Source: Peribolospora baueri
Lineage: Eukaryota
Assembly: GCA_029717555.1 (NCBI GenBank)
Contig: JAMDHS010000045.1
Span: 62,001 to 126,000, forward strand
Direction of reading: 5' to 3'
Length of the DNA stretch: 64,000 bases
Part shown: positions 18,089 through 62,836 of the stretch, one piece after another
Layout: every line of letters starts with the position of its first letter
Numbering within the stretch: position 1 is the stretch's first letter
Position numbers and translations under genes: made by a program
The notes under the pieces: generated by a model
Told to the model about the DNA's origin: nothing
The model's input: the letters and a program-made list of their open reading frames with translations, nothing else
Database searches by the model: none

Positions 18089-19465
18089 TCAGGACTGGAA
18101 CTTGCGAAGCGTGCTGATCTCATTCAGGAGCGCCGCCAAGGTATCCTCGTCGATGCGTGTCAGACTGGAAGACGAGCCGGGGACGACGGTAGATCACGAC
18201 GAACGGTAGGATAACGGAACGAGAGGGTAGAAGGAGCGCGAAAGAGGGATGGAAAAGTCGTCAGTCCAGGCGTACGTCTTACCACCTTGGGGCCCAGATG
18301 GCTGTTCGCTCCAACCACGTCCGCAGCAAAGAACTTCCTGCCAGACGCTCCTCCACTAGGATCTTTATCTAGTCGCGCGAAACGAGGAGAACAGCTCACC
18401 TTGGAATAAGCGTTGTGGCCTCTTCGACGGTCTCACAAGCGAGATTACCAAGCTGTGCCTGCTCGAACGAAGTCAGTTGAGGCTCCTTCCGAAGCGTTCT
18501 AGATGCCCAAGAAGGGAAGGGAACGGAAGAGGCAGGACGGAGGGCAGGGAAGGACAGGAAGGTTCACTTAAGCCCAGTCGGCATCCCACGTTGTTCCCGT
18601 AAAAGGCGAGGACGAGCTGAGGTAGTACGCACTCTCGCACGGCCTCCGCCGTCTCCGCGTTGTGGTAGAGCGAGAATTTGTTGACAAACTCGAGCGTCTT
18701 CTGATAGACGCTACAATGGAAAAAAGAGGGCGTAGATGACGTGTAATGGAATGGAAAACATGTCAGAAAGGAGACGTCCGTCCATCCATCATAAGTCCAC
18801 GTGAGTCGAGGGTGCCACCGCTCATATCATGTATTTGACAGGCATCCCTCGTTCAGGGTGAGGGCGTCCTCTCTATAGGAACACTCACGGCGAGTTGACA
18901 GGAACCTGTGCGCCGTGTCTCTCCGACGTGGCGTCGAGGAGCAGCTTGACCTCGGAGATCATGAGGCATGACGAATCTTTGAAATCTGGGGAGCATACGA
19001 ACCGAAATACGAGCTATGCGTCAGAGCCGTCATTCTTGGGGAGTCTCACCCGCTCATACTGCCAACCGTACGCCGACGCCCGATTCCTTCTGTGTTCGGG
19101 TGCATGGTGTACGCAAAAGCCCGTCAGAGGCGCTCTGCCTCCCACACGTCTCCAGGACGGTGGCGAGGACGGAGGCGACAAACGCGCCGAGCACCCTGGT
19201 CCGATATCAACCTTGGCTAAGCCGCCCGTCCGCTGCCTCCCATCGACCAGGTCTATCCAACCCAACGGGCGTCCATCCATCCATTCATCCATCCATCGTC
19301 CGTGCGTCCGTCATCCGTTCCATCCACCCGTCCCCTCGGCCCGGGACCGTCGCATCGCCCCCCGATCGCCCTGGAGCTGCGTCGCGCTGACTCACCAGGC
19401 CCGAGCTTGAGCGAGCCCGCGTCCTCATCATCCTGCACATGCCTCCTATGACGGTGAGAGGACAT
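18089..19465 (-). CDS. RPB4: RNA polymerase II subunit RPB4
   Basis: Five exons: MSSHRHRRHVQDDEDAGSLKLGP|DFKDSSCLMISEVKLLL...|VYQKTLEFVNKFS...AVRE|TLRKEPQLTSFEQAQLGNLACETVEEATTLIP|SLTRIDEDTLAALLNEISTLRKFQS*. Confidence 0.95.
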
Positions 19466-28823: not shown

Positions 28824-31800
28824 ATGTCGTCACCCCAAAGACCGGCACAAGGCACCACCAGCGTTGGTCCCCCTCCAAGGATGGAAGGGAAGGAGAAAGA
28901 GCGCGAAAGGACGCCACCGTTCGGTCGGAGGGGAGAGGGAGCAGGCAGTGAGCCTACGGTGACGTATCGGCATGTCCTCAGCCCTCAGACGTTGAACCCC
29001 CAGTGAGTTCGTCAAAGTCGGACGGGCACACGGATTCTTGCTGGGCGCCCCTCCGTTCCCATAAACCGTTCCCGCCTCAGCCCCGCGGCCCTCTCATCCT
29101 CTCTTCGTTGCATCGCACGCCTCACCTCACGATTCTGAAGCAATCCTCTCCGCGTCGTCTCGGTCTGTGACGTGGACGCCGCCTACGCTCTCTTCGAAGC
29201 GGCTCGGCTAGGTATCGACGGACAGAAGGTGCCGCTGGCGGTTCAGCAATGGCAAGGCCTCGTGAGTGAGACGCATCCGTATGGCCGTCTTGTGCCCATC
29301 CATACGCCTCTGCGCCGTCGTCCCCTCCCCCGGGGCGTCACGCCCGGGGAGTGATGGAGGCAAGGTTCTGATCGGCAGTCACCTTCACCCTTCTATGGAC
29401 AGATCGCCGTCAACTACCCCGCTCGGAAATTTGGAATCACCAGACACGAGACGGCGACAGAGGCTAAGAGGAAGTGTCCCGAACTGATCTGCGTTCACGT
29501 AGCGACGTACAAGGAGGGCGAGGTGAGCTTTCTGCGTCATCCGCGAGAACCTGCCCAAGCAGGCGGGGTTAACATTGTTTTCGCTTTCATCATACGCAAT
29601 CGCAGGAGCAGGCGGGGTACTGGGAAAACCCCCGTCCGGAAACGCACAAGGTCTCCCTGGATCCTTACAGGAGGGAGAGCAAGAAGATCGTCGCCATCTT
29701 CCGGGAAATGTGCCCGACAGCTCTCATAGGTGGGTGGACAGTCACCCCTGCAGTGGTCTCATTTGCTCTCACTGTCTTCCTCAACCATCCTCTTGACGTC
29801 GCTCTGCAGAGAAAGCGTCGATCGACGAAAGCTATTTCGATCTGACCGCTCCCGTAAGGGACTTGCTGCTGGAGAGGTACCCACATCTTCGCGACCTGCC
29901 TCCGGAGGGCTTGGACACCCCGCTACCGCCTCCGCCCAAGGTGCCTTGGAAAGGCCTCGGTAACCTCATTCCCATGGATGGTGAGGGGCCAGCTTCGATA
30001 TCAGTGCCCAAACGAGAAAGTAGGCACGATGTGAAAGGGTCGGCTGTGGCAGCTGGAGAGGCATCGACATCCCGTTCTCCGTCGCCTGTGCCTGCGGTTG
30101 AGTCAGATCTATCTTCAGGGCCTCAGGGTGACGCGTCAGCTGCTCCCGGCGACGAGCAGTTCGACGCCGGAGCGGAGGATTCGATGGAACAGGGCGAGTT
30201 CACGAGAACGTGGTCCGACGTGGCTCTTGCCTTCGGAGCTGAGATCATGGCAAAAGTCCGTCGGGCGGTGCGCGACAGGCTGACCTATACCACTTCGGCG
30301 GGGATAGCGCGTAACAAGTCGTTGGCCAAGCTCTGTTCGTCTTGGAAGAAGCCGGACGCTCAGACTGTCCTGCGAAACGGAGCGATCGGCGGCTTTCTCG
30401 AAGAGCTGCCCTTTCAAAAGATTCGCTTCTTGGGCGGAAAACTGGGGGAGGCTGTGGCCAAGGAGTGGGACTCGAACACCGTGGGCGACCTGTGGTGAGT
30501 ACTGTCTGATATCGGCGGGAGGAACGTCAAGACGATCTGACTCTTGGTCCTTGTGACTCGCGGTGCATGCATCGAAAGGTCCGTAAGTTTGGAGGAAATG
30601 CAGAGACGCTTAGGAGAAGAGAGCGTGTGGGTGTACGATGTTTTGAGAGTGAGTCGGGCCGGCATCAAAGCTTGCTATCTCCTGAATGCCGGAGCTGACT
30701 AGATTTACATGTTTGGCCGCCAGGGAGTCGACTATAGCGAAGTGACAGAGCGAGAAGCCAACAAGTCGATGCTGGCAGCGAAGAACGTGCAGCCGGCGAT
30801 CACCCGGACGGAAGAGGCACTCAGATGGCTCAAGATCCTCTCGGCGGAGCTGGTCATCCGGCTACGAGAACAACGGGAAGAGCGTCCAAGTCTATGGCCG
30901 AAGACGCTCGTACTTCACTACCGAAAGCCGAGCGAGAGCGCACGGTCTCGACAATGTACCTTCCCTTACACTCGCAACTTGAACGCCGAAGTTGTGCTCA
31001 AGCTGGCAGAGAAGCTCTGGAAGGAGAGCTTGGGTGAGCAGATCGCTAGGGGGAGTATGGGTAAGGTCAGCAACATCTCGCTCGGCTTCCATGGGCTCGA
31101 AGAAGGAGAGACGGGTCAGAAGAATATCGAGGGTTTTTTCGGGAAGGCCCCCTCGGTGCGCCCGAAGCGTCCGATGGAGGAGGCTGTCGAGAGTACGGAT
31201 GGAGGAGCGGCCAGTTCGATTCCGCAATTCGGGCCATCGGCTCGGTCATCGCTAGCGCCGCCATCCAAGAAGCGCAAACCACCACGAGGGCTGGACGTCT
31301 TTTTCGCTTCTCAAGCTGTTCAGCAACCTACCGTGGGATCGTCGTCCGCGGGCGCACGACCAAAGTCGCCAACTCCACGATCCGGCTCGGAATCGTCGGC
31401 CGACAGCTTGTCAACCTGGGTTTGCCCGCAATGCTCCAAGGTCATTACTGTCTCTGCGGAAAAGGACCAGGAAGCGGAGGGGGCCCTGCACAACGCTCGA
31501 CAAGGGCATGAGGTGAGCTTTCCGATTTCGCTTGCTCCTCTTCGGGACAATCGGACGGCGCGATTGACCTCGCCACGGCGTGCTCCTATCTCACATAAAC
31601 CAGGACTGGCATTTCGCGGAAAGCCTCGCGGAAGCCGATCGCGCGATAAATGGAGCGGCTGCGAAGCCGCCAGGTTCGCCTCGCTCTGCCACCCGAAGAG
31701 ACGCCACTCGTGTTGGAACAAGTCATCGAGGTGCGACGACGGCTCCGAGCCAAGCCAGCGGATGCCAAGAGAAGAAGCACTCGAGAGACAAAGGGCAGAC

Positions 31801-53227: not shown

Positions 53228-54761
53228 TCAACCCATGTATCCCTCGCCCTTCTCCAACAGACCGACGGCAAGACCGAGGCCCCAAGCCACACGAGGGCCC
53301 AGCAAGCCGTCCTTCTGCGTCATGCCGGGCCGAGCGTCCACCTCGTCGTCTTCGTCCTCATCCACCCATCCCTCGACTTCATCTCCGTCGTGTCCGGCCT
53401 CTAAACCCCTCGTCTCTCCGCGACTTCTCGCCTCCTCTTCCTCGCTGTCCTCCTGTCGCATGACCTGATCGATAGCCATGGGTATGCTCAGCGTCACTCG
53501 GGCGAGCTGCATCGTAAGGCGAAGCCGCCCAAAGACGTCGAAATACGAAAGCTGTCGTAAGGAGTGTTGGATCTCGTACAGGCGAATTAGCTCGAACTTG
53601 ACCACTCTTAGGTACAACTTTTGACCGGCTAAGGGAAGGAGAGCGCAGTGTGGATATGAGATGCCGATTCGGATGGTGAGAGAACAAGAACGCCGTTGCA
53701 GAAGCGACTCACTCAGAAGCACTTCTCGCATCTTGCGAAACACGCTTTCCAAATTCTCCACAGCGCTCTCGCCCAAATTGAGGCCGGGATTGCCTTCATT
53801 TGCGGCGTCTGCGTATGAGGACAAGGACAAGGCGTTTGCTTAAGTCTATACTCATCCACGAGCGCGGTCATCATATTTTCTATACTCACTGACAAACACC
53901 CGGACCATCTCAAAATCGCCCTCCATGAACTCGCAAAACACCTGATATAGCACGCTGTTCAGCGTATCTTCCCCCGCCATGCCGCGTCCGTACGACCCTA
54001 TCCCTTCGCCGTCCGCCATCGCCGACGCATAGTCCGTACGCCCGCTGAGATCGTAGATTCTGCGAGAGGATGGCTTGGAGAGCGTCTCGTATGCGAAGGA
54101 GAGCTTCTGGAAAGCCGACGTCGACGGCGGGTAATTTGGAAATTTGCTGCAAAGTCAAAGACGAATCGACGAGAATGAGAGATAGGCAATCCTCATTCGC
54201 CAACGCGGCTCTCCTCGACGGCTGTTTCCATTACTCACTCAGGATGGCACACCCTGCTTCTACTCAGAAATGCCCGCCTGATCTCCTCCGTCTTGCACTT
54301 GCGGTTCGATATGCCCAGCACGACGTAAAGATCCTCAGCGGCTAGAACAGAATCCACCATGGCATACTTTGCCTCGTTACCGGCACGATCTGCTGCCACC
54401 TTCGACGATTCTGCTTCGTATTCTCCGGCAAGTGGAACTCGGTTGGAGCTGGCGCCATTGGTTGAGGAATGGAGGTCGCGACTAGACGGGAAGGTCGCGC
54501 CGCCGCCCGCTGAGCGGCGGGAACGCCGAGCGGCTGCATTGGCACCAGGCGACGATGGTAGTTCCTTAGATCCAAAGGCGTAGCTCGACGCTGTGAGCAA
54601 AGCAAGAGCGGTTCAAAGTGAGCAGCTTCGCACTTGCACAGCGCCATACCTTGTGCGAAGTCCCCAGAGGCAGACGCCTTGCCTTCTTGTCATTGCTCGG
54701 CGCACAGAGTGAGTGGTGTCTACTCACCGGTGTTGTACAAGTAGTCAAATACAAGGACCAT
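53228..54761 (-). CDS. J-domain (DnaJ/Hsp40) protein
   Basis: DLYVVLGI...EEIRRAFLSRSRVCHP|DKFPNYPPSTSAFQKLSFAYETLSKPSSRRIYD (HPD split by an intron), followed by a helical region FELIRLYEIQHSLRQLSYFDVFGRLRL. First exon (ATG 54761) is tentative. Confidence 0.82.
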
Positions 54762-55224: not shown

Positions 55225-56721
55225 ATGGCAGAGAACAAGAAGTCGCTTGCCCTCGCGGTGATTGAGTGGCTTAAGGACTCTCTCAATGACGGTACGATCC
55301 GCCAGGACGACCAGGAGAGCATCGACGTGGCGACGCAATGCATCTCTGAGGCGTTCGGCATCGACCCAGAGGACGAGCAGCAGAAGAACAAATACTCCAT
55401 TCGGCCAGCCAAGTTGCAGCAAATTTTCGATGTTGCTCTTAAGGCTCAGCAGAGGCAGAGGGCGGTGAGCATGCTTAGGTGGCGCCAGGTAGGCTGTCTG
55501 GTAAGTTGGAGACGGCGTGCTGACTTTAGCCACCGGCCGTCGTCCACAGGACCAACCCGCCGCGTCCACCTCCTCCACGCAAGCTCCATCTTCCGGCGCT
55601 AATCCGGCGGCCACCACGCCTGATCCGGAGTCACTTACCAAGGCAGAGGCGCTCAAAGCAGAAGGCAATAAGTTGATGTCGGACAAGTCGTACGAAGGCG
55701 CGGTGGTCAAGTACACCGAGGCGATCAACCTCGCACCGAATCAGGCCGTCTACTTCTCCAACAGAGCGGCCGCTTACTCCCAACTGGGCCGATATGACGA
55801 GGCGATTGAGGATGCCAGGCAGGCGGCCAGGGTGGACCCCAAGTTCAGCAAGGCGTACTCGCGTCTGGGGTGAGTTATCGAGCGCTCTTCCGTCGCCTCC
55901 CGTCTTTCACATCTCGCCAATACTGACAAGCTTGTCGACGCCCTGGTTCCGCTACAGCCACGCTCTGTACTCTTCCGGTCGCTTCTCGGAAGCGGCAACG
56001 GCGTACCAGCAAGGTCTCGATCTCGACCCGACCTCGACTCTCATGAAGACTGGCCTGGAAACCGCCCAAGCGCGAGCGCGAGAAGCCGAAGGGTCTTCTG
56101 ACGTGTCTCAAAATGCTGGTGCCGATGGTCCAGATGCAGGCGCCGGTGCCGGAGGAAGTGGATTCGGCGGTTTCCCAGGTATGGGCGGTGCGGGTGGCAT
56201 GCCGGATCTGTCAAGCATCATGAACAACCCCATGTTCTCCCAGATGGCGCAGAACTTGTGAGCTTTGTACGTCTTTCGCTCCTCAGGAAATACGTCTCCG
56301 GGCTGATTTGCGACTGCCAATGTCGGCATCGTTATCCTTTGCCTTGTCTTCCAGGATGGCGAACGGCGGACTGGACAGGCTCTTGCAGAACCCACAGCTC
56401 CGTCAGATGGCCGAGGGCTTCGGCCAGGGTGGGGGTATGCCGGACATGAGCCAGCTGGGCCAGCTCATGAACGACCCCTCCATGCGAGAAATGTGAGTGC
56501 CGCTTTCGTTTCGTTTGTACTTCAAGCCGTCGCCTAGTGGTAGCTCCTCGCCTCCGTGATACCGTTAGACTTTCGTTAGGGTGCGCATCAAGGTTTGCTT
56601 ACCGATATCGGGTTTTCCGGCTCGTAGGGCGCGCAACATGATGGGTGGCTTCGGTGGTGGAGCGCGCGGGGAGGAGGACGAAAATGCTGGATCAGGCCCG
56701 AACAGCGGCGCCTACTCTTGA
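55225..56721 (+). CDS. SGT2: Small glutamine-rich TPR co-chaperone Sgt2 (GET pathway)
   Basis: N-terminal dimerisation domain (KKSLALAVIEWL...ESIDVATQCISEAFGID), TPRs (AEALKAEGNKLM...AVYFSNRAAAYSQ...SKAYSRLG), Met/Gly-rich STI1-like C-terminus (MPDLSSIMNNPMFSQMAQ). Confidence 0.94.
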
Positions 56722-57104
56722 CGCTCCGGGTGACTGGGGGCTCAAACAAACGTTTCGTTCGTCGCGAGTCGCTGTTATTCTTACCCATTCTTTTCGGCAT
56801 ACACGTCGCCTGAAGACTGGTCAATCTAGTAGTGCCCAGAAGATGTTCCCACGTCCGACCAAATGAAGACGGGACTTCGTGGCGATGACGCGACTCGGAG
56901 CATTGACAAATCTGTATATGCGTCAATGACGCTCGCTAAGACACCCTGGGCATTTCCTATTGCTGGCCTTTTTCTGAATTTGCTTCAACGGATCGGTGAC
57001 GCTATTAAAAAAGCGTGCTTGATAAGCCCCCTCGATGATCTACCGACGTCGAAGAAACCGTCCCCTTCTGATCCTTCTGGCTACGATACTCAAACCTCTC
57101 AACC

Positions 57105-57736
57105 ATGTCGAACTCCATCCCACCCCGCGAAGTGGATGAGCCGGTGCAGAACCGGTTCGTCAAAGGCCTCAAAACAATCAATAGGTTTGCCAAGAGGGAT
57201 CCCGCGCTGTACCCTTTGTTGGCGATCGTAGGTGTTTGCTCCTATCTTGCGTGATCCATAGCTTTTCGAGAGGACTGCTTGACAGCAGTCAAGGTGAAGG
57301 CGGCACGGCTACGGCTTGGGGAGGAAGTCTTGGCTGAGCAGGAGAGAGCTAGGAGAGGAGAGGAAAGCAGATTGATTGATGTTCTGTGAAAGAAGACTGA
57401 GGCCAGTAATTCTTACCAACTTGACCTCAACTTCTTTCCATCTCCACCGTGAACGGGAAGGGTGAGCTTTTTTTGCAAAAAGGGTAGCCTTGGCATTCTC
57501 ATCTCGCCCCGAGTCTCGTTCTCAAATATAGGAAGATATAGTAGATGACATCGTCACGCCCCTTCTTTCTTCCATTTCCTTCTTCGCTCCCTCGTTTCCC
57601 CCCCGTCTCCCGTTCGCACACGCACAAAGCATGCACAATGTATGGAGTGGCCGGGTATATGTATGGCACAAAGGCGCTCGCCAAGCCGATCTGGGAAGGA
57701 CCGCCGAGGCCTGCCCAGGAAAAGTCACATATGTGA
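57105..57736 (+). CDS. Small (~76 aa) single-TM protein, NDUFA4/COXFA4(B12D)-like, tentative; model uses a 1-nt exon
   Basis: Exon 57105-57227 (MSNSIPPREVDEPVQNRFVKGLKTINRFAKRDPALYPLLAI) + G57461 + exon 57630-57736 (ACTMYGVAGYMYGTKALAKPIWEGPPRPAQEKSHM*) gives one continuous hydrophobic helix. A further intron at the 3' end is possible. Confidence 0.55.
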
Positions 57737-58268
57737 GCACGTTCAAGTAGCCCCATTCCCCGCTTTTTTTTTTTTGTCATTCCTGTGCGACTAAAAGGTC
57801 GTTTCCATTTTAACCTTCTTGGTCCTCCGTCTCTCCACTGAACTTAACCGCCCGTCACCATCACTTTGTACCGCCCTGGGATTTTTTTCCCATAGGCCCT
57901 CTCCGGACACCCGAGCAGGGCGTAAACGCAGCCTTCCAGGTACGGGGGAGGACGTGTTAGAGGCGAGGCAGCGCGCCAGGGAGCCTGGGAACGGCAGGGG
58001 CACTCTTTCGGAACATCAGGAGGGTGGTGTCAGGAAGTCGAGCGCTGCGTAGCCATCGCACGAGTGAGGCTGGGAAGAGGGTTCTAACGACGATGCGTTG
58101 TTGGGTTCGCTTACACACATTTTCATCTAGTGCGGTCACACGTCTCGCCTGATGACTTTTTTTTCGCATTTGCCCTGCGTTTGCGTCTACATCCTGCCTG
58201 TTGCCAAGTCGATGAATACAGTTTCGAGCGAAATTGGCCTCTCCCGTCTACTCCATCTCCTTCAGCGT

Positions 58269-60242
58269 TTAATGTAAATGTCCGAGCATGCGCCCAGGAC
58301 GCTCGACTAGATCTTTCCAATCTTGCACGAACCTGTAAGATGCGAAATCAACGAATCCCATCAGAACAGGGGAAAAGGACTCGTCAGAGGCGGTCGCTAC
58401 GGAGAGGAGAAAAGCGGTAATGGGATCGTAAACTCGCCTAGCAAGCTCTGCGCCTTCGACGACACGGTGGTCCCCCGTAAAGCTGACGGCCATGAGTTTG
58501 CGCCTCACTACCCTGTCTGGATCGTCTCCGAGCGACGACGAAACCTCACCCTCTCTCCATCCGGGACATTCGCTCGCAAACCTGGGCAAACTCCTCGTCC
58601 TACCCAGTGCGCCAATGATCAACTGTCCCGTGGGCGGGATGAGAGGATGACAGTAAGTGCCCCCTCCGACGGCGCCGATGTTACTCAGCGTCACCGTGCC
58701 TGTCCTCCCGCCAGGGTTCAGGTCTGAGGGGGAAAGACCGCGGGACGTCATGGAGCGGGACTGAAGGCGCGTGATGCGGCTCGCGAGCGCGTAGGACGAG
58801 GAGTCCTGCACGGAGGGGAGCGTCGGAGTGAGGAGACCGTTCGGGCTGGAGAGAGCTATGGAGATGTCGTGCGTCGTTCGACGGACTAGATGCGCTTGTT
58901 CAGTAGGGGCCGATCCTGGCGTAGGAGAGCTGAGGGTGCAGAGAAATAGCGGATGGCGATGAAGGGCGATGGAGAGCGCCTTGACAAGGAGTGGGAGCAG
59001 CGTCATCCTGTCGTACTTCCCGTCTTCTTCGACCGTTTCTTCTTCCGCCATCATCGTCGCCCTCAATTCATCCCTGACGACGGTGCTTTCGCCCGCAGTC
59101 CCTTTGTCTAAGCCACTGGTCTTTCGGTACGATTGCGGAATGCCCGTAGAGAGCAGCTTGCGCAAAGCATCGAGCTCGGTCACGTCTATTTCGTCCGAGT
59201 AGCCGAAGTGCGGCACCGAGAGCGTCGAAGTCATGGCGCGGAACATTGCGCGGCGGACAGGCGAAAGGGCGATCTTCCGAGTCTCTGTGGTGCTTTCCAA
59301 TGCAGATTGCGCGGATGGACGGTCCGTATCTGTGCCAGCCTGGCCGGAAGAAGAGACGAAGCGTATCACGTCCTCCTTGGTGACACGGCCAGACTTGCCG
59401 GTACCTTGAACTTGCCTAAGATCGACAGACTGTTCGCGGGCCACGCGCCGCACGGCCGGTGTGGCCAAAAGATAGTCGTCTGAACCCTGAATACCATTTG
59501 AAGAGGCTTGCAGAGAGGGGTCTGGGTGACCGTACGGTGCTTTTGCGAGCTCGGGTGCTGTCGTCGGCGGCGCCTCGTGAACCTCCTTGGAAGCCTCGGG
59601 AGCAGCTTCAGAGCTCGCTTGTGCGACGTCTGACGTACCCGTCTCCGCCTCAACTTCTTCCTCAATCTCGCAAAGCGGCTCGCCCACCCTGGCGACGTCG
59701 CCAACCTTGTATTTGAGGCTGACGACGCGGCCGGCGTATCGAGAGGTGATCTCGACGGAGGCCTTGTCCGACTGCACTTCGGCAATGGGATCGAACTCTT
59801 GTACCACGTCGCCGGGAGAAACGTTCCTGGACGTAGAATAAATCCATCATAGAAAAATGAAAATGCATTACTTTAATAGGTCTGGCCGGTGGGGTGGTCT
59901 TATCCTCTTGCCTCCTCGCCGATGCGACTCGGCACTCGTGGCTGGACCTCACCACTTGATAATCTCGCATTCTGTGATTCCCTCGCCCACGTCGGCAAGC
60001 AAGAACGGCTTAATGACCTTTCCGGGGTTGAGAGAGATGTAAGATGAATGGAATGTCCTTTGTGAAACAGAGGTCGAAGTCAGTTGCGACGCAGCATGGT
60101 CGAAGTCGAAGGGCCTAAGTCGGAAGGAGGAGGGGGATGCGAGTTGGATGTAAGAGCGGCGCTGGAGAGCGAGAGCTCTCGGAGCGAGGTGTCTTTGGAG
60201 CAGGGAACGTGCGAAGGGAGAGAAAGAGATGGAGAGACGCAT
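58269..60242 (-). CDS. DBT: Dihydrolipoamide branched-chain transacylase (BCKDH E2), mitochondrial
   Basis: Presequence; lipoyl domain (FLLADVGEGITECEIIKW...EVQSDKASVEIT); E3-binding domain (LATPAVRRVARE...VQGTGKSGRVTKEDV); catalytic domain (GTVTLSNIG...DHRVVEGAELA). Last intron is GC-AG, 58437-58333. Confidence 0.93.
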
Positions 60243-60572: not shown

Positions 60573-62836
60573 CTACCAACTGTTCCCGCCTTCATCGCCC
60601 AATCCATCTTCCCCACCTTCATCCCCATCATCCCACATATCTCGCCGCCCCACGTCTCCCCATCTCCTGAACGCCGAATCCTCCCATTCCCCGCCAATCC
60701 TCCCGGCATCAGGGCCCCACGGATCCTCCCCGCGCTCGTCCCACACTTCGTCTTGTCCCCCGGAACCGTACTGGGGCGGACGGGGCGTGGTTTGTGGCGA
60801 AGAAGGATCGGCGGAGGGAAACGGAGGTGCAGCATCTGCAGAGGCACGCGGATCGGGCTCCTGACCTTGAAGCGCGTCCCGTCCGCCTCCAAATAACCCC
60901 CCAGCGATCCCAGCCGCACCGCCCACCATTCCGGGTCCGAACTCTCCGCCGCTCCAAGGGCTCGCTCCGCCGTACTGACCCGCGTCTCCGGAGGGAACTT
61001 GCACGCTGCCAGGCGCGGACGAAGGTGGCTCGGACGAGGAAGGTGACTGTTGCTGCTCCTGTCCTTGTCGATCCCCATCTTCGCGGTACTCCTGACCTCC
61101 TCCGCCCATCCAGAAGAATGGGAAGAAGCCTCCTGAACCGGAGTGCCGGGAGAAGTAATCGACTGGAAGGACATAACCGGCGGTGAAGCGGAGATGATAT
61201 CAAAACGAAAGGGGAGTGAGCAAACAGAGCTCCAAACAGGTTGATGGCGTATGGGTAGGGTATGCCATGCAGCCAGCGAATCACTCACAGTCGATCGAGA
61301 CGGCCGTGGCCAGCGTGACGGCGCGCTCATCGAGCGTGAGCGGCCTGACCGCACGCTCTTCCACCGCCTTACCGCCCACTACGCCTGGCGTCGTGAGACT
61401 GGGAGCAAACATATCTTCTTGAGCGACGGCTTCGAACCGGATGACTGGCGATGGAGGAGGCAACAGGAAGAGAAAAAGAAAGGTTCGGACGTGAGCAAGG
61501 CGCGCGGCGGTACGGAAGGAGCGCTGTCGGTGAATTAACCAGTATATAGACCACCTACCATATTGGCCTGTGTCGGTGAACAGTTCCCTCCCGAATCCTC
61601 TAAAATTCCGATTGATAGCACCAACCGGGTTCCCATCCGCGTCTTGCAAATAGAAGTCCCAGCTCAGCAAGGGTGCATCGATGTAGGCGAACTGATCCAA
61701 GTGTTCCTTCTCAGGCTCGGAGGAGGGGGGCCGGTTGAGGAAAAGATCAAACTTGCGCCTCCACGGGTGCCAGACTTGTTGTGCCTCGCCTATCAACATC
61801 GGCTTTTCTAGTGACGCCGGCGGATATGGAGAGTTGGGATACGAAGAAGTGGAGTAAACAAAGGCGCGAGAGTTGATGAGTTTGTACGGCCGGCGAATCT
61901 GGACGAGAGGATTGCGAGAAAGAGCAAGGCGATTGCAAGTTAATACTCTGCTCCAGCTAGGGCGGCGCAAGTTTGAAGAAGTGCTGGCTCACGATAAGCA
62001 CGATCCGGCCCGTGGCATCCATCACGAAGGATCGAAACGGTCGATGAGTCCGAAAGACTTGTCGTTGAAACGCCCCTCCAAAAATGCCGGTTTCCTCCTC
62101 GGCCATGTAGCCTACGTGAGCACCGTTCGGTGCTAGGATGGCATATCGATTGGCCTACGAGGTCGGTTCAACAAGAGTCATGCGCGCAACGAGAAAGTCA
62201 GTCTGATGGCAGCGAAAGAGAGCACACCTGAGCAGCGCCCTGGCCTCACCTGCTCAAACCCCATGAACACGTTCATCATTTCCAGTTCCCTCGTGACGAC
62301 CAGCGCACTATTCCCCAACAGCCGCGACACGCCACCTCCGTCGTCGGACACATCATCGCGTTGCAAGACGCCATCGGGATCATACGGTACAACGACGGGC
62401 GTGAGCAATGCGGCGTTGACGGGCGGATCCTGCCGCGAGTCTTGCGACGGATAATAGAAAGGTCGGTCGTGGGAGGCCTGGGCGCCAGAGGCGGAGGAAG
62501 ACGGACCAGGTCGACCGGCACCACGAGCTGAGCGCGGGCCTGCACACCCCAATTGCCGGCAAGAACATTCGCCAAGTCAGCCTTGAATCGTAGATCGGAA
62601 AGATGCTGTTTGCGGCAGTAAGCTGGGCATTCCCGACAACCAAAAGCCGTCTACCCACCGGTATGTCGTGGGAACCTGGACAAGGCATACGATCTCTGGA
62701 GACCCAAACTGAGAGCGGCCGATGAAGGCGGTGGTGGTGCGATGGCAGCCGTCGAACCAGGCGACAGTTGGTGCCCGATGCTTCGCAAGACGGACCCGCT
62801 GTGCCGCCCTGCTAGCATCATTCGTGTCGAGAGCAT
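60573..62836 (-). CDS. AIM25: Phospholipid scramblase-family protein, Aim25-like (mitochondrial)
   Basis: Presequence MLSTRMMLAGRH..., then NSALVVTRELEMMNVFMGFEQ|ANRYAI...RQVFRTHRPF...IRRPYKLINSR...WHPWRRKFDLF...IDAPLLSWDF...FGRELFTDTGQY...LTLDERAVTLATAVSID|FDYFSRHS. Confidence 0.9.

Follow-up and report, generated by a model that had tools for sequence, protein, structure and literature searches.

Exons of a single nucleotide have been documented in Arabidopsis, Fusarium and Coprinopsis. According to the parts of the reports cited here, the single-nucleotide exon A333 of Arabidopsis APC11 was proven by base substitution and cDNA reading, and the authors argue for the sequential removal of two introns (PMC4674806). 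The Fusarium CYP621A P450 genes carry a one-nucleotide exon in the context AG/G/GT, for which support comes from SRA reads, from 20-24 orthologues and from a relative that lacks introns (PMC12940212). In Coprinopsis cinerea, a long-read annotation contains 13 one-nucleotide exons in 13 genes, about one gene in 1000 (PMC12230235). Here, we describe a locus in a genomic window of Peribolospora baueri that is best modelled, at about even confidence, as containing a predicted exon of this type, the single base G57461. Because such exons are already documented in the three organisms above, the locus would add an example of an established kind, and it opens no new kind of mechanism. If confirmed, it would document a one-base exon for a genome of fungal type, and the respiratory-chain micro-gene carrying it would be one that is absent from the protein collections searched.

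The window comprises 64,000 nucleotides (positions 62,001 to 126,000 of contig JAMDHS010000045.1), and all positions given below refer to it. A Pfam scan of its 287 stop-to-stop ORFs of at least 100 codons revealed eukaryotic genes split by short introns, including those for tricalbin, L37e, L30e, DNA polymerase eta (Pol eta), phosphomannomutase, SGTA, 2-oxoacid dehydrogenase E2, scramblase and TruB. The locus lies between SGTA (+) and 2-oxoacid dehydrogenase E2 (-), in a gap of approximately 1.8 kb within this gene-dense window. A first-pass annotation, made from the sequence alone, had read 57105-57736 (+) as a micro-gene whose best model requires an exon consisting of G57461 only, and all of its coordinates and sequences across this interval are correct base for base.

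Read directly from the window sequence, the ORF starts at ATG 57105 (+). Coding exon 1 (57105-57227, +) has 41 codons, contains a P-A-L-Y-P-L motif that opens a hydrophobic helix, and ends in phase 0 with the codon ATC (57225-57227), immediately followed by a GTAGGT donor from 57228, in which a further GT is nested at 57232 (G/GTGTTT, phase 1). Proposed intron 1 (57228-57460, +, 233 nt) runs from this GTAGGT donor through a branch-like TTGAC (57421-57425, with A57424 as the branch A) to AAG 57458-57460, which is the first AG downstream of TTGAC and is preceded by 52 AG-free nucleotides. G57461 sits in AAG/G/GTGAGC, a single base with an acceptor AG directly 5' and a donor GT directly 3' of it. 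The donor GTGAGC (57462-57467) opens proposed intron 2 (57462-57629, +, 168 nt), in which a long AG-free pyrimidine tract (83 AG-free nucleotides, the last 40 being 78% pyrimidine) leads to AAG 57627-57629. The frame is then open from 57630 to the stop codon TGA at 57734-57736, and this last coding exon (57630-57736, +) encodes the remainder of the helix, K-P-I-W and a short tail. The proposed one-base exon (57461, +) would make up an Ala codon together with C57630 and A57631, standing in its first position.

Translations joined by coordinates give 76 residues with the single G, 77 residues with an extra Val when the GTGTTT donor is used, and 49 residues when the ORF is left unspliced. Inclusion of G57461 restores the frame and yields a coherent protein with a single hydrophobic helix, which is continuous across ATC/G/CA TGC as had been claimed, while its omission gives a frameshifted product from which the helix is lost.

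Two other arrangements resemble the locus in that a long interval is removed stepwise through an internal AG/GT site. At a zero-nucleotide ratchet point, AG directly abuts GT, so that stepwise removal via the internal AG/GT leaves no base, and in a stwintron one intron is inserted into a splice motif of another, so that the outer intron can be spliced only once the inner one has been excised. Neither fits the present case: a zero-nucleotide recursive splice site was rejected because one base, G57461, lies between AG and GT, and a stwintron because none of the four splice sites is interrupted in the genomic DNA. The CYP621A genes are closer, since in the parts of the report cited here they share with our locus the AG/G/GT core, flanking exons whose phases differ by one base, an enclosing intron exceeding the usual (median) length more than twofold, and gene models that miss the exon; they belong to a different gene family, and both acceptors are AAG at our locus (PMC12940212). 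APC11 likewise has one base between AG and GT, there inside an annotated 422-nt intron and with a branch point 44 nt upstream as against 36 nt here, but it is a plant gene and its base is A, not G (PMC4674806). Whereas the plant exon is proven, orthologues and reads back the Fusarium one, and long reads back those of Coprinopsis (PMC12230235), the exon described here is predicted from the DNA sequence alone. The earlier statement that one-base exons are very rare and missed by annotation pipelines agrees with what is cited here from Arabidopsis APC11, Fusarium CYP621A and Coprinopsis, and with 13 such exons in 13 genes of the latter the prior for our model is low, yet not negligible. Three features of the locus would serve as warning signs for annotation pipelines: the apparent intron is 2.3 times as long as the local maximum, the phases of its donor and acceptor differ by one base, and only 1 nt separates an AG from the consensus donor that follows it.

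If the model is correct, 57105-57736 (+) would be a micro-gene whose product, a membrane protein of 76 residues with a single pass, is of the B12D/NDUFA4 type. This family is a small subunit of the respiratory chain in the inner mitochondrial membrane, and the predicted function is taken from it. Two ordinary GT-AG introns, 57228-57460 and 57462-57629, would be removed and G57461 left behind as an exon, with which a mid-helix Ala codon would begin (Ile followed by Ala-Cys). Since splice sites 1 nt apart imply that the two introns are not recognisable simultaneously, removal would be sequential, by intron definition combined with re-splicing, a route also proposed for Arabidopsis APC11. We infer from the sequence that the gene is expressed and that both introns are used, one after the other. 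G57228, G57461 and G57629 are all G, and three splicing routes would consequently produce an identical mRNA; junction reads alone therefore cannot prove the one-base exon, and proof would have to come from half-spliced intermediates or from replacing G57461.

As a yardstick for these sites, we used 28 introns assembled from genes of the same window. Seven of them are placed with single-residue accuracy, as the Pfam profile coordinates of their exons run on from one to the next (four in PMM and one each in L30e, the C2 domain and scramblase), the successive exons covering profile positions 1-30, 35-89, 91-123, 124-187 and 188-219 in PMM, 10-31 then 33-86 in L30e, 22-43 then 47-92 in C2, and 14-41 then 42-89 in scramblase. 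The 21 others were placed from frame, signals and recognisable protein sequence. The tricalbin gene (-) illustrates how short the exons can be, with one of 67 nt (3109-3043, C2 profile positions 22-43) between introns of 63 and 92 nt (3172-2951); the second of these, 3042-2951, is canonical, and a simple gene finder read through it in frame. A gene finder based on coding potential only was rejected because several known introns were mis-called, and the script's calls for SGTA intron 2, tricalbin intron 3 and the L37e exons were corrected by eye. The catalogue introns measure 63-172 nt and are all GT-AG. Because part of the catalogue was proposed by a script that rewards G at +5, pyrimidine tracts and branch motifs, the presence of G at +5 in 28/28 donors and the position matrices built on the 28 introns are somewhat circular, and their uniformity is somewhat inflated. 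GTGAGT and GTGAGC together account for 15 of the first 26 donors; position -3 of the acceptor is C in 21 introns, T in 6 and A in 1; and AG-free stretches of 18-140 nt precede the acceptors, a range that includes the 83 nt before AAG 57629.

Scored with these matrices, the donor GTGAGC at 57462 reaches 7.8, where real donors range from 2.8 to 9.4 (leave-one-out). With a matrix from 26 introns it scores 7.7, corresponding to the 99.7th percentile of 7071 GT sites and exceeding 21 of the 26 real donors. GTAGGT at 57228 scores 3.2, low but inside the real range, and the scramblase intron 61558-61445 has an identical donor hexamer. Both acceptors score low with respect to the real median of about 4.5, at 2.3 for AAG 57460 and 1.6 for AAG 57629 (real range -3.5 to 8.9), and AAG acceptors make up only 1/28 of the catalogue. 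The use of AAG elsewhere in the window, which the first-pass annotation had claimed for Pol eta, gains indirect support from the protein: the match to the HhH profile PF21704 breaks off at position 29 of 56 where the preceding exon ends, so that a 70-nt mini-exon (30579-30648, +) is needed, flanked by an 84-nt intron with a purine-rich AAG end (30495-30578) and a 75-nt intron (to 30723). PDB searches with the 23-residue mini-exon piece and with the C-terminal ORF returned no Pol eta match.

The branch A of TTGAC lies 36 nt from AAG 57460, with no AG between them. TTGAC is also the only strict branch candidate of L30e intron 1 (at 45 nt) and a candidate in a Pol eta intron (at 36 nt), and is likely the branch site of both. 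For intron 2, a second branch-like site had been reported together with a long AG-free pyrimidine tract; the tract is there, but the strict motif yT[GC]Ay is absent within 110 nt of AAG 57629, where the non-strict candidates are ATGAC, 81 nt upstream, and GTCAC, 73 nt upstream. Intron 1, at 233 nt, exceeds every one of the 28 catalogue introns (maximum 172). The two low-scoring AAG acceptors, the over-long intron 1 and the lack of a strict branch motif in intron 2 all speak against the one-base model. In SGTA intron 2 (55924-55932, +) and a Pol eta intron (30696-30702, +), an AG located 3-5 nt after a consensus CTGAC branch motif is skipped for the next AG, indicating that too short a distance from the branch site prevents use of the first AG.

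How often such an internal site would arise by chance was estimated in two ways. The window contains 374 AG-N-GT sites on both strands (128 kb), and three of them, including 57461, combine a donor score of at least 4.2 with an acceptor score of at least 0.1, cut-offs much laxer than the scores at 57461; this corresponds to 0.0066 expected sites per 280 nt. The AG-N-GT at 30646 is the ordinary donor of a Pol eta intron. Among 20,000 dinucleotide-preserving shuffles of 57232-57629 (398 nt), the observed donor and acceptor scores were reached in three, and in none when the branch motif was required as well, although these strict figures are optimistic because shuffling destroys pyrimidine tracts. 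With lax cut-offs (donor 4.8, acceptor -0.3), 198 of the 20,000 shuffles pass, 30 of these with the branch motif, and 1037 pass at the laxest cut-offs. It thus appears very unlikely that AG-G-GTGAGC with its own TTGAC branch site occurs here by chance. Among all GT-AG models with an open frame, inclusion of G57461 is the sole solution that continues the helix with both donors inside the range of the window's real donors. Ranked by weakest site it comes 25th of 4152, and none of the best 12 models listed above it continues the helix.

The coding signal of the two exons is uneven. Exon 1 has a codon score of +3.2, the best of its six frames, and a GC3 of 0.76 compared with 0.70 in the genes of the window, while exon 2 has a GC3 of 0.65 and a codon score of +1.1, below that of one reverse frame. 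Nevertheless, the frame from 57630 onward is the only hydrophobic continuation among the three downstream frames. In the 76-residue product, the best 19-residue window (residues 34-52) has a Kyte-Doolittle (KD) value of 1.40, and one transmembrane-type helix is predicted to start at a P-x-x-[YI]-P-L motif, as expected for the family. The locus is probably a small, unannotated gene of fungal type for a one-helix mitochondrial membrane protein.

The resemblance to NDUFA4/B12D respiratory subunits that the first-pass annotation had suggested finds weak support. PF06522 (B12D) matches residues 30-44 of the read-through ORF at profile positions 1-15 of 54, with E 0.018 and 14.8 bits for the 49-residue ORF and E 0.0045 and 16.8 bits for a 25-residue piece, both below the gathering cut-off of 21.5 bits. 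In Pfam, neither exon 1 alone nor exon 2 alone gives a match to PF06522, and the lack of one for exon 1 implies that the three read-through residues V-G-V contribute to the similarity. V-G-V is the in-frame translation of the donor GTAGGT and the next codon, GTT, and would be intronic if G57461 is an exon; its contribution could be a coincidence or a hint that exon 1 runs further. A B12D match that stays below the cut-off and is lost without V-G-V, and a second exon without family signal, weigh against the one-base model. Like B12D/NDUFA4 (MLRQ) proteins, the predicted product is small, has an N-terminal P-x-x-Y-P-L leading into a single helix and a Pro motif after it; it differs by a 30-residue N-terminal extension and by a second half that has no detectable similarity on its own. 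The spacing from the first Pro of P-x-x-x-P-L to the Pro of K-P-I-W is 28 residues with the single G and 29 with the extra Val; in animal and plant members of the family, the corresponding distance is probably 28. The assignment to B12D/NDUFA4 is weakly supported, and a role as an inner-membrane respiratory-chain subunit would follow from that family.

Database searches returned little else. The ESM Atlas ranked a B12D cluster first for the 49-residue ORF (score 0.75), which we take as a lead only, and gave nothing usable for exon 2. A search for homologous proteins with the 49-residue ORF, at near and at longer lengths, and with the ORF region of exon 2 yielded no candidate, and no annotated protein containing exon 1 was found in the protein collections searched. 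Two matches among protein representatives were rejected. One is a 2537-residue bacterial Big_7 Ig-repeat protein, which we judge not to be a relative: the N-terminal 33 residues of the ORF weakly and repeatedly match one repeat unit, and the sum over repeats produces an E of 2e-8. The other is an unrelated long protein with summed weak matches to the same 33 residues. The PDB sequence search gave only a sigma factor at E 1.6. In a scan of metagenome proteins, 593 stretches matched the pattern and none was a relative, and a degenerate 24-nt pattern from exon 2 hit three metagenome loci, all within unrelated ORFs.

Three other readings of the locus have to be weighed. The first would need one intron only and no exotic exon: a single 398-nt intron (57232-57629) spliced from the weak donor G/GTGTTT (57232-57237, +, phase 1) to AAG 57629 would give 77 residues with Ile-Val-Ala-Cys across the junction, the internal AAG-G-GTGAGC being an idle decoy. 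A priori, weak donors occur far more often than one-base exons do, the product is in frame, its helix is equally hydrophobic (KD 1.53 versus 1.40), and it retains one of the read-through residues that aid the B12D match. The compatible frame is no evidence either way, since a nested GT is automatic for any GTNNGT donor. Nonetheless, with a score of -0.8 GTGTTT falls short of all 28 real donors, and it has no G at +5, the base that 28/28 of them carry there (a uniformity somewhat inflated by selection); it would also have to compete with a stronger donor 4 nt upstream and with a top-class donor inside the intron. That intron would be 2.3 times as long as the longest of the 28, the extra Val would be encoded by GTA, the rarest Val codon (20/325), and the helix spacing would be 29 instead of the probable family value of 28. 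Moreover, the internal site with its branch motif would have to be fortuitous, which happened, according to the cut-off chosen, in 0 to 30 of the 20,000 shuffles. We therefore regard this reading as rather unlikely. It would be recognised by an mRNA junction reading ...GCGATCGTAG-CATGC..., as opposed to ...GCGATC-G-CATGC... for the one-base exon. The latter mRNA could, in turn, come from one non-canonical intron, either GT..AA (57228-57628), with G57629 retained, or TA..AG (57229-57629), with G57228 retained; given the three identical Gs, the message would be the same, and an aligner would report a single non-canonical junction. Such intron ends are extremely rare in general, 28/28 catalogue introns are GT-AG, and a consensus donor and a branch site inside the intron would be left unexplained, which makes this explanation scarcely credible.

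More room must be left for the doubtful but possible case that the modelled B12D gene does not exist as a functional, spliced unit, the locus being a decayed gene, the 49-residue read-through ORF alone, or a gene of different structure, such as splicing from 57228 to TAG 57531, continuation of exon 1 into I-V-G-V-C-S-Y-L-A, or a 3' intron at 57733-57895. The B12D match stays under the threshold and draws on read-through residues, exon 2 combines a weak codon score with the lack of any family signal, and no relative came out of the searches run (proteins, PDB, metagenome). In addition, the acceptor at 57531 scores 5.1, above either AAG, and a GTGAGC overlaps the stop codon with a strong acceptor at 57895. 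However, the coding statistics of exon 1 are clear, the SGTA-E2 gap of about 1.8 kb would otherwise be empty in a gene-dense window, and only the sequence from 57630 onward continues the helix. Splicing to 57531 would lead into a non-membrane peptide encoded by the pyrimidine tract, and the 3' extension shows no codon periodicity.

Returning to G57461 as an exon, the first-pass annotation had further suggested that its skipping could act as a frame switch. Omission of the G does shift the frame on translation, but a regulatory role finds no support. For such a regulated switch, GTAGGT would pair either with AAG 57460, so that the G stays in and the subunit is functional, or with AAG 57629, so that the G is lost and a frameshifted, probably unstable message results; we consider this very improbable. 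If true, it would set the output of a respiratory-chain subunit at a splicing step.

Some further features of the locus and the window were noted. The GTGAGC at 57733, which overlaps the stop TGA 57734-57736, has a donor score of 3.9, and a CATAG acceptor 163 nt downstream scores 6.0; the interval 57733-57895 (+) could be a 3' intron or mark an alternative C-terminus, but as a further intron it is uncertain and may be due to chance or belong to the 3' UTR. The frame opened by its splicing has a GC of 0.69/0.65/0.67 at the three codon positions, that is no periodicity. The first half of proposed intron 1 is strikingly purine-rich at 57320-57370 (+; GGAGAGAGCTAGGAGAGGAGAGGAAAG). In the predicted fold, this segment pairs with the pyrimidine tract ending intron 2, with an energy no better than that of shuffles (z -0.17). 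No Rfam match was found within 56900-58300, so that an intron-hosted snoRNA does not explain the long interval, and no introner-like copies of the proposed introns occur elsewhere within the 64-kb window. Finally, the AG-N-GT site at 54706 looks like an ordinary donor, and another, TTCAG/G/GTGAGG at about 18855 (acceptor 3.9, donor 4.9; 18800-18900, +), has GTGAGT and TTGACAG motifs close by; the latter site may be an ordinary donor or a marker of very short exons in some gene.
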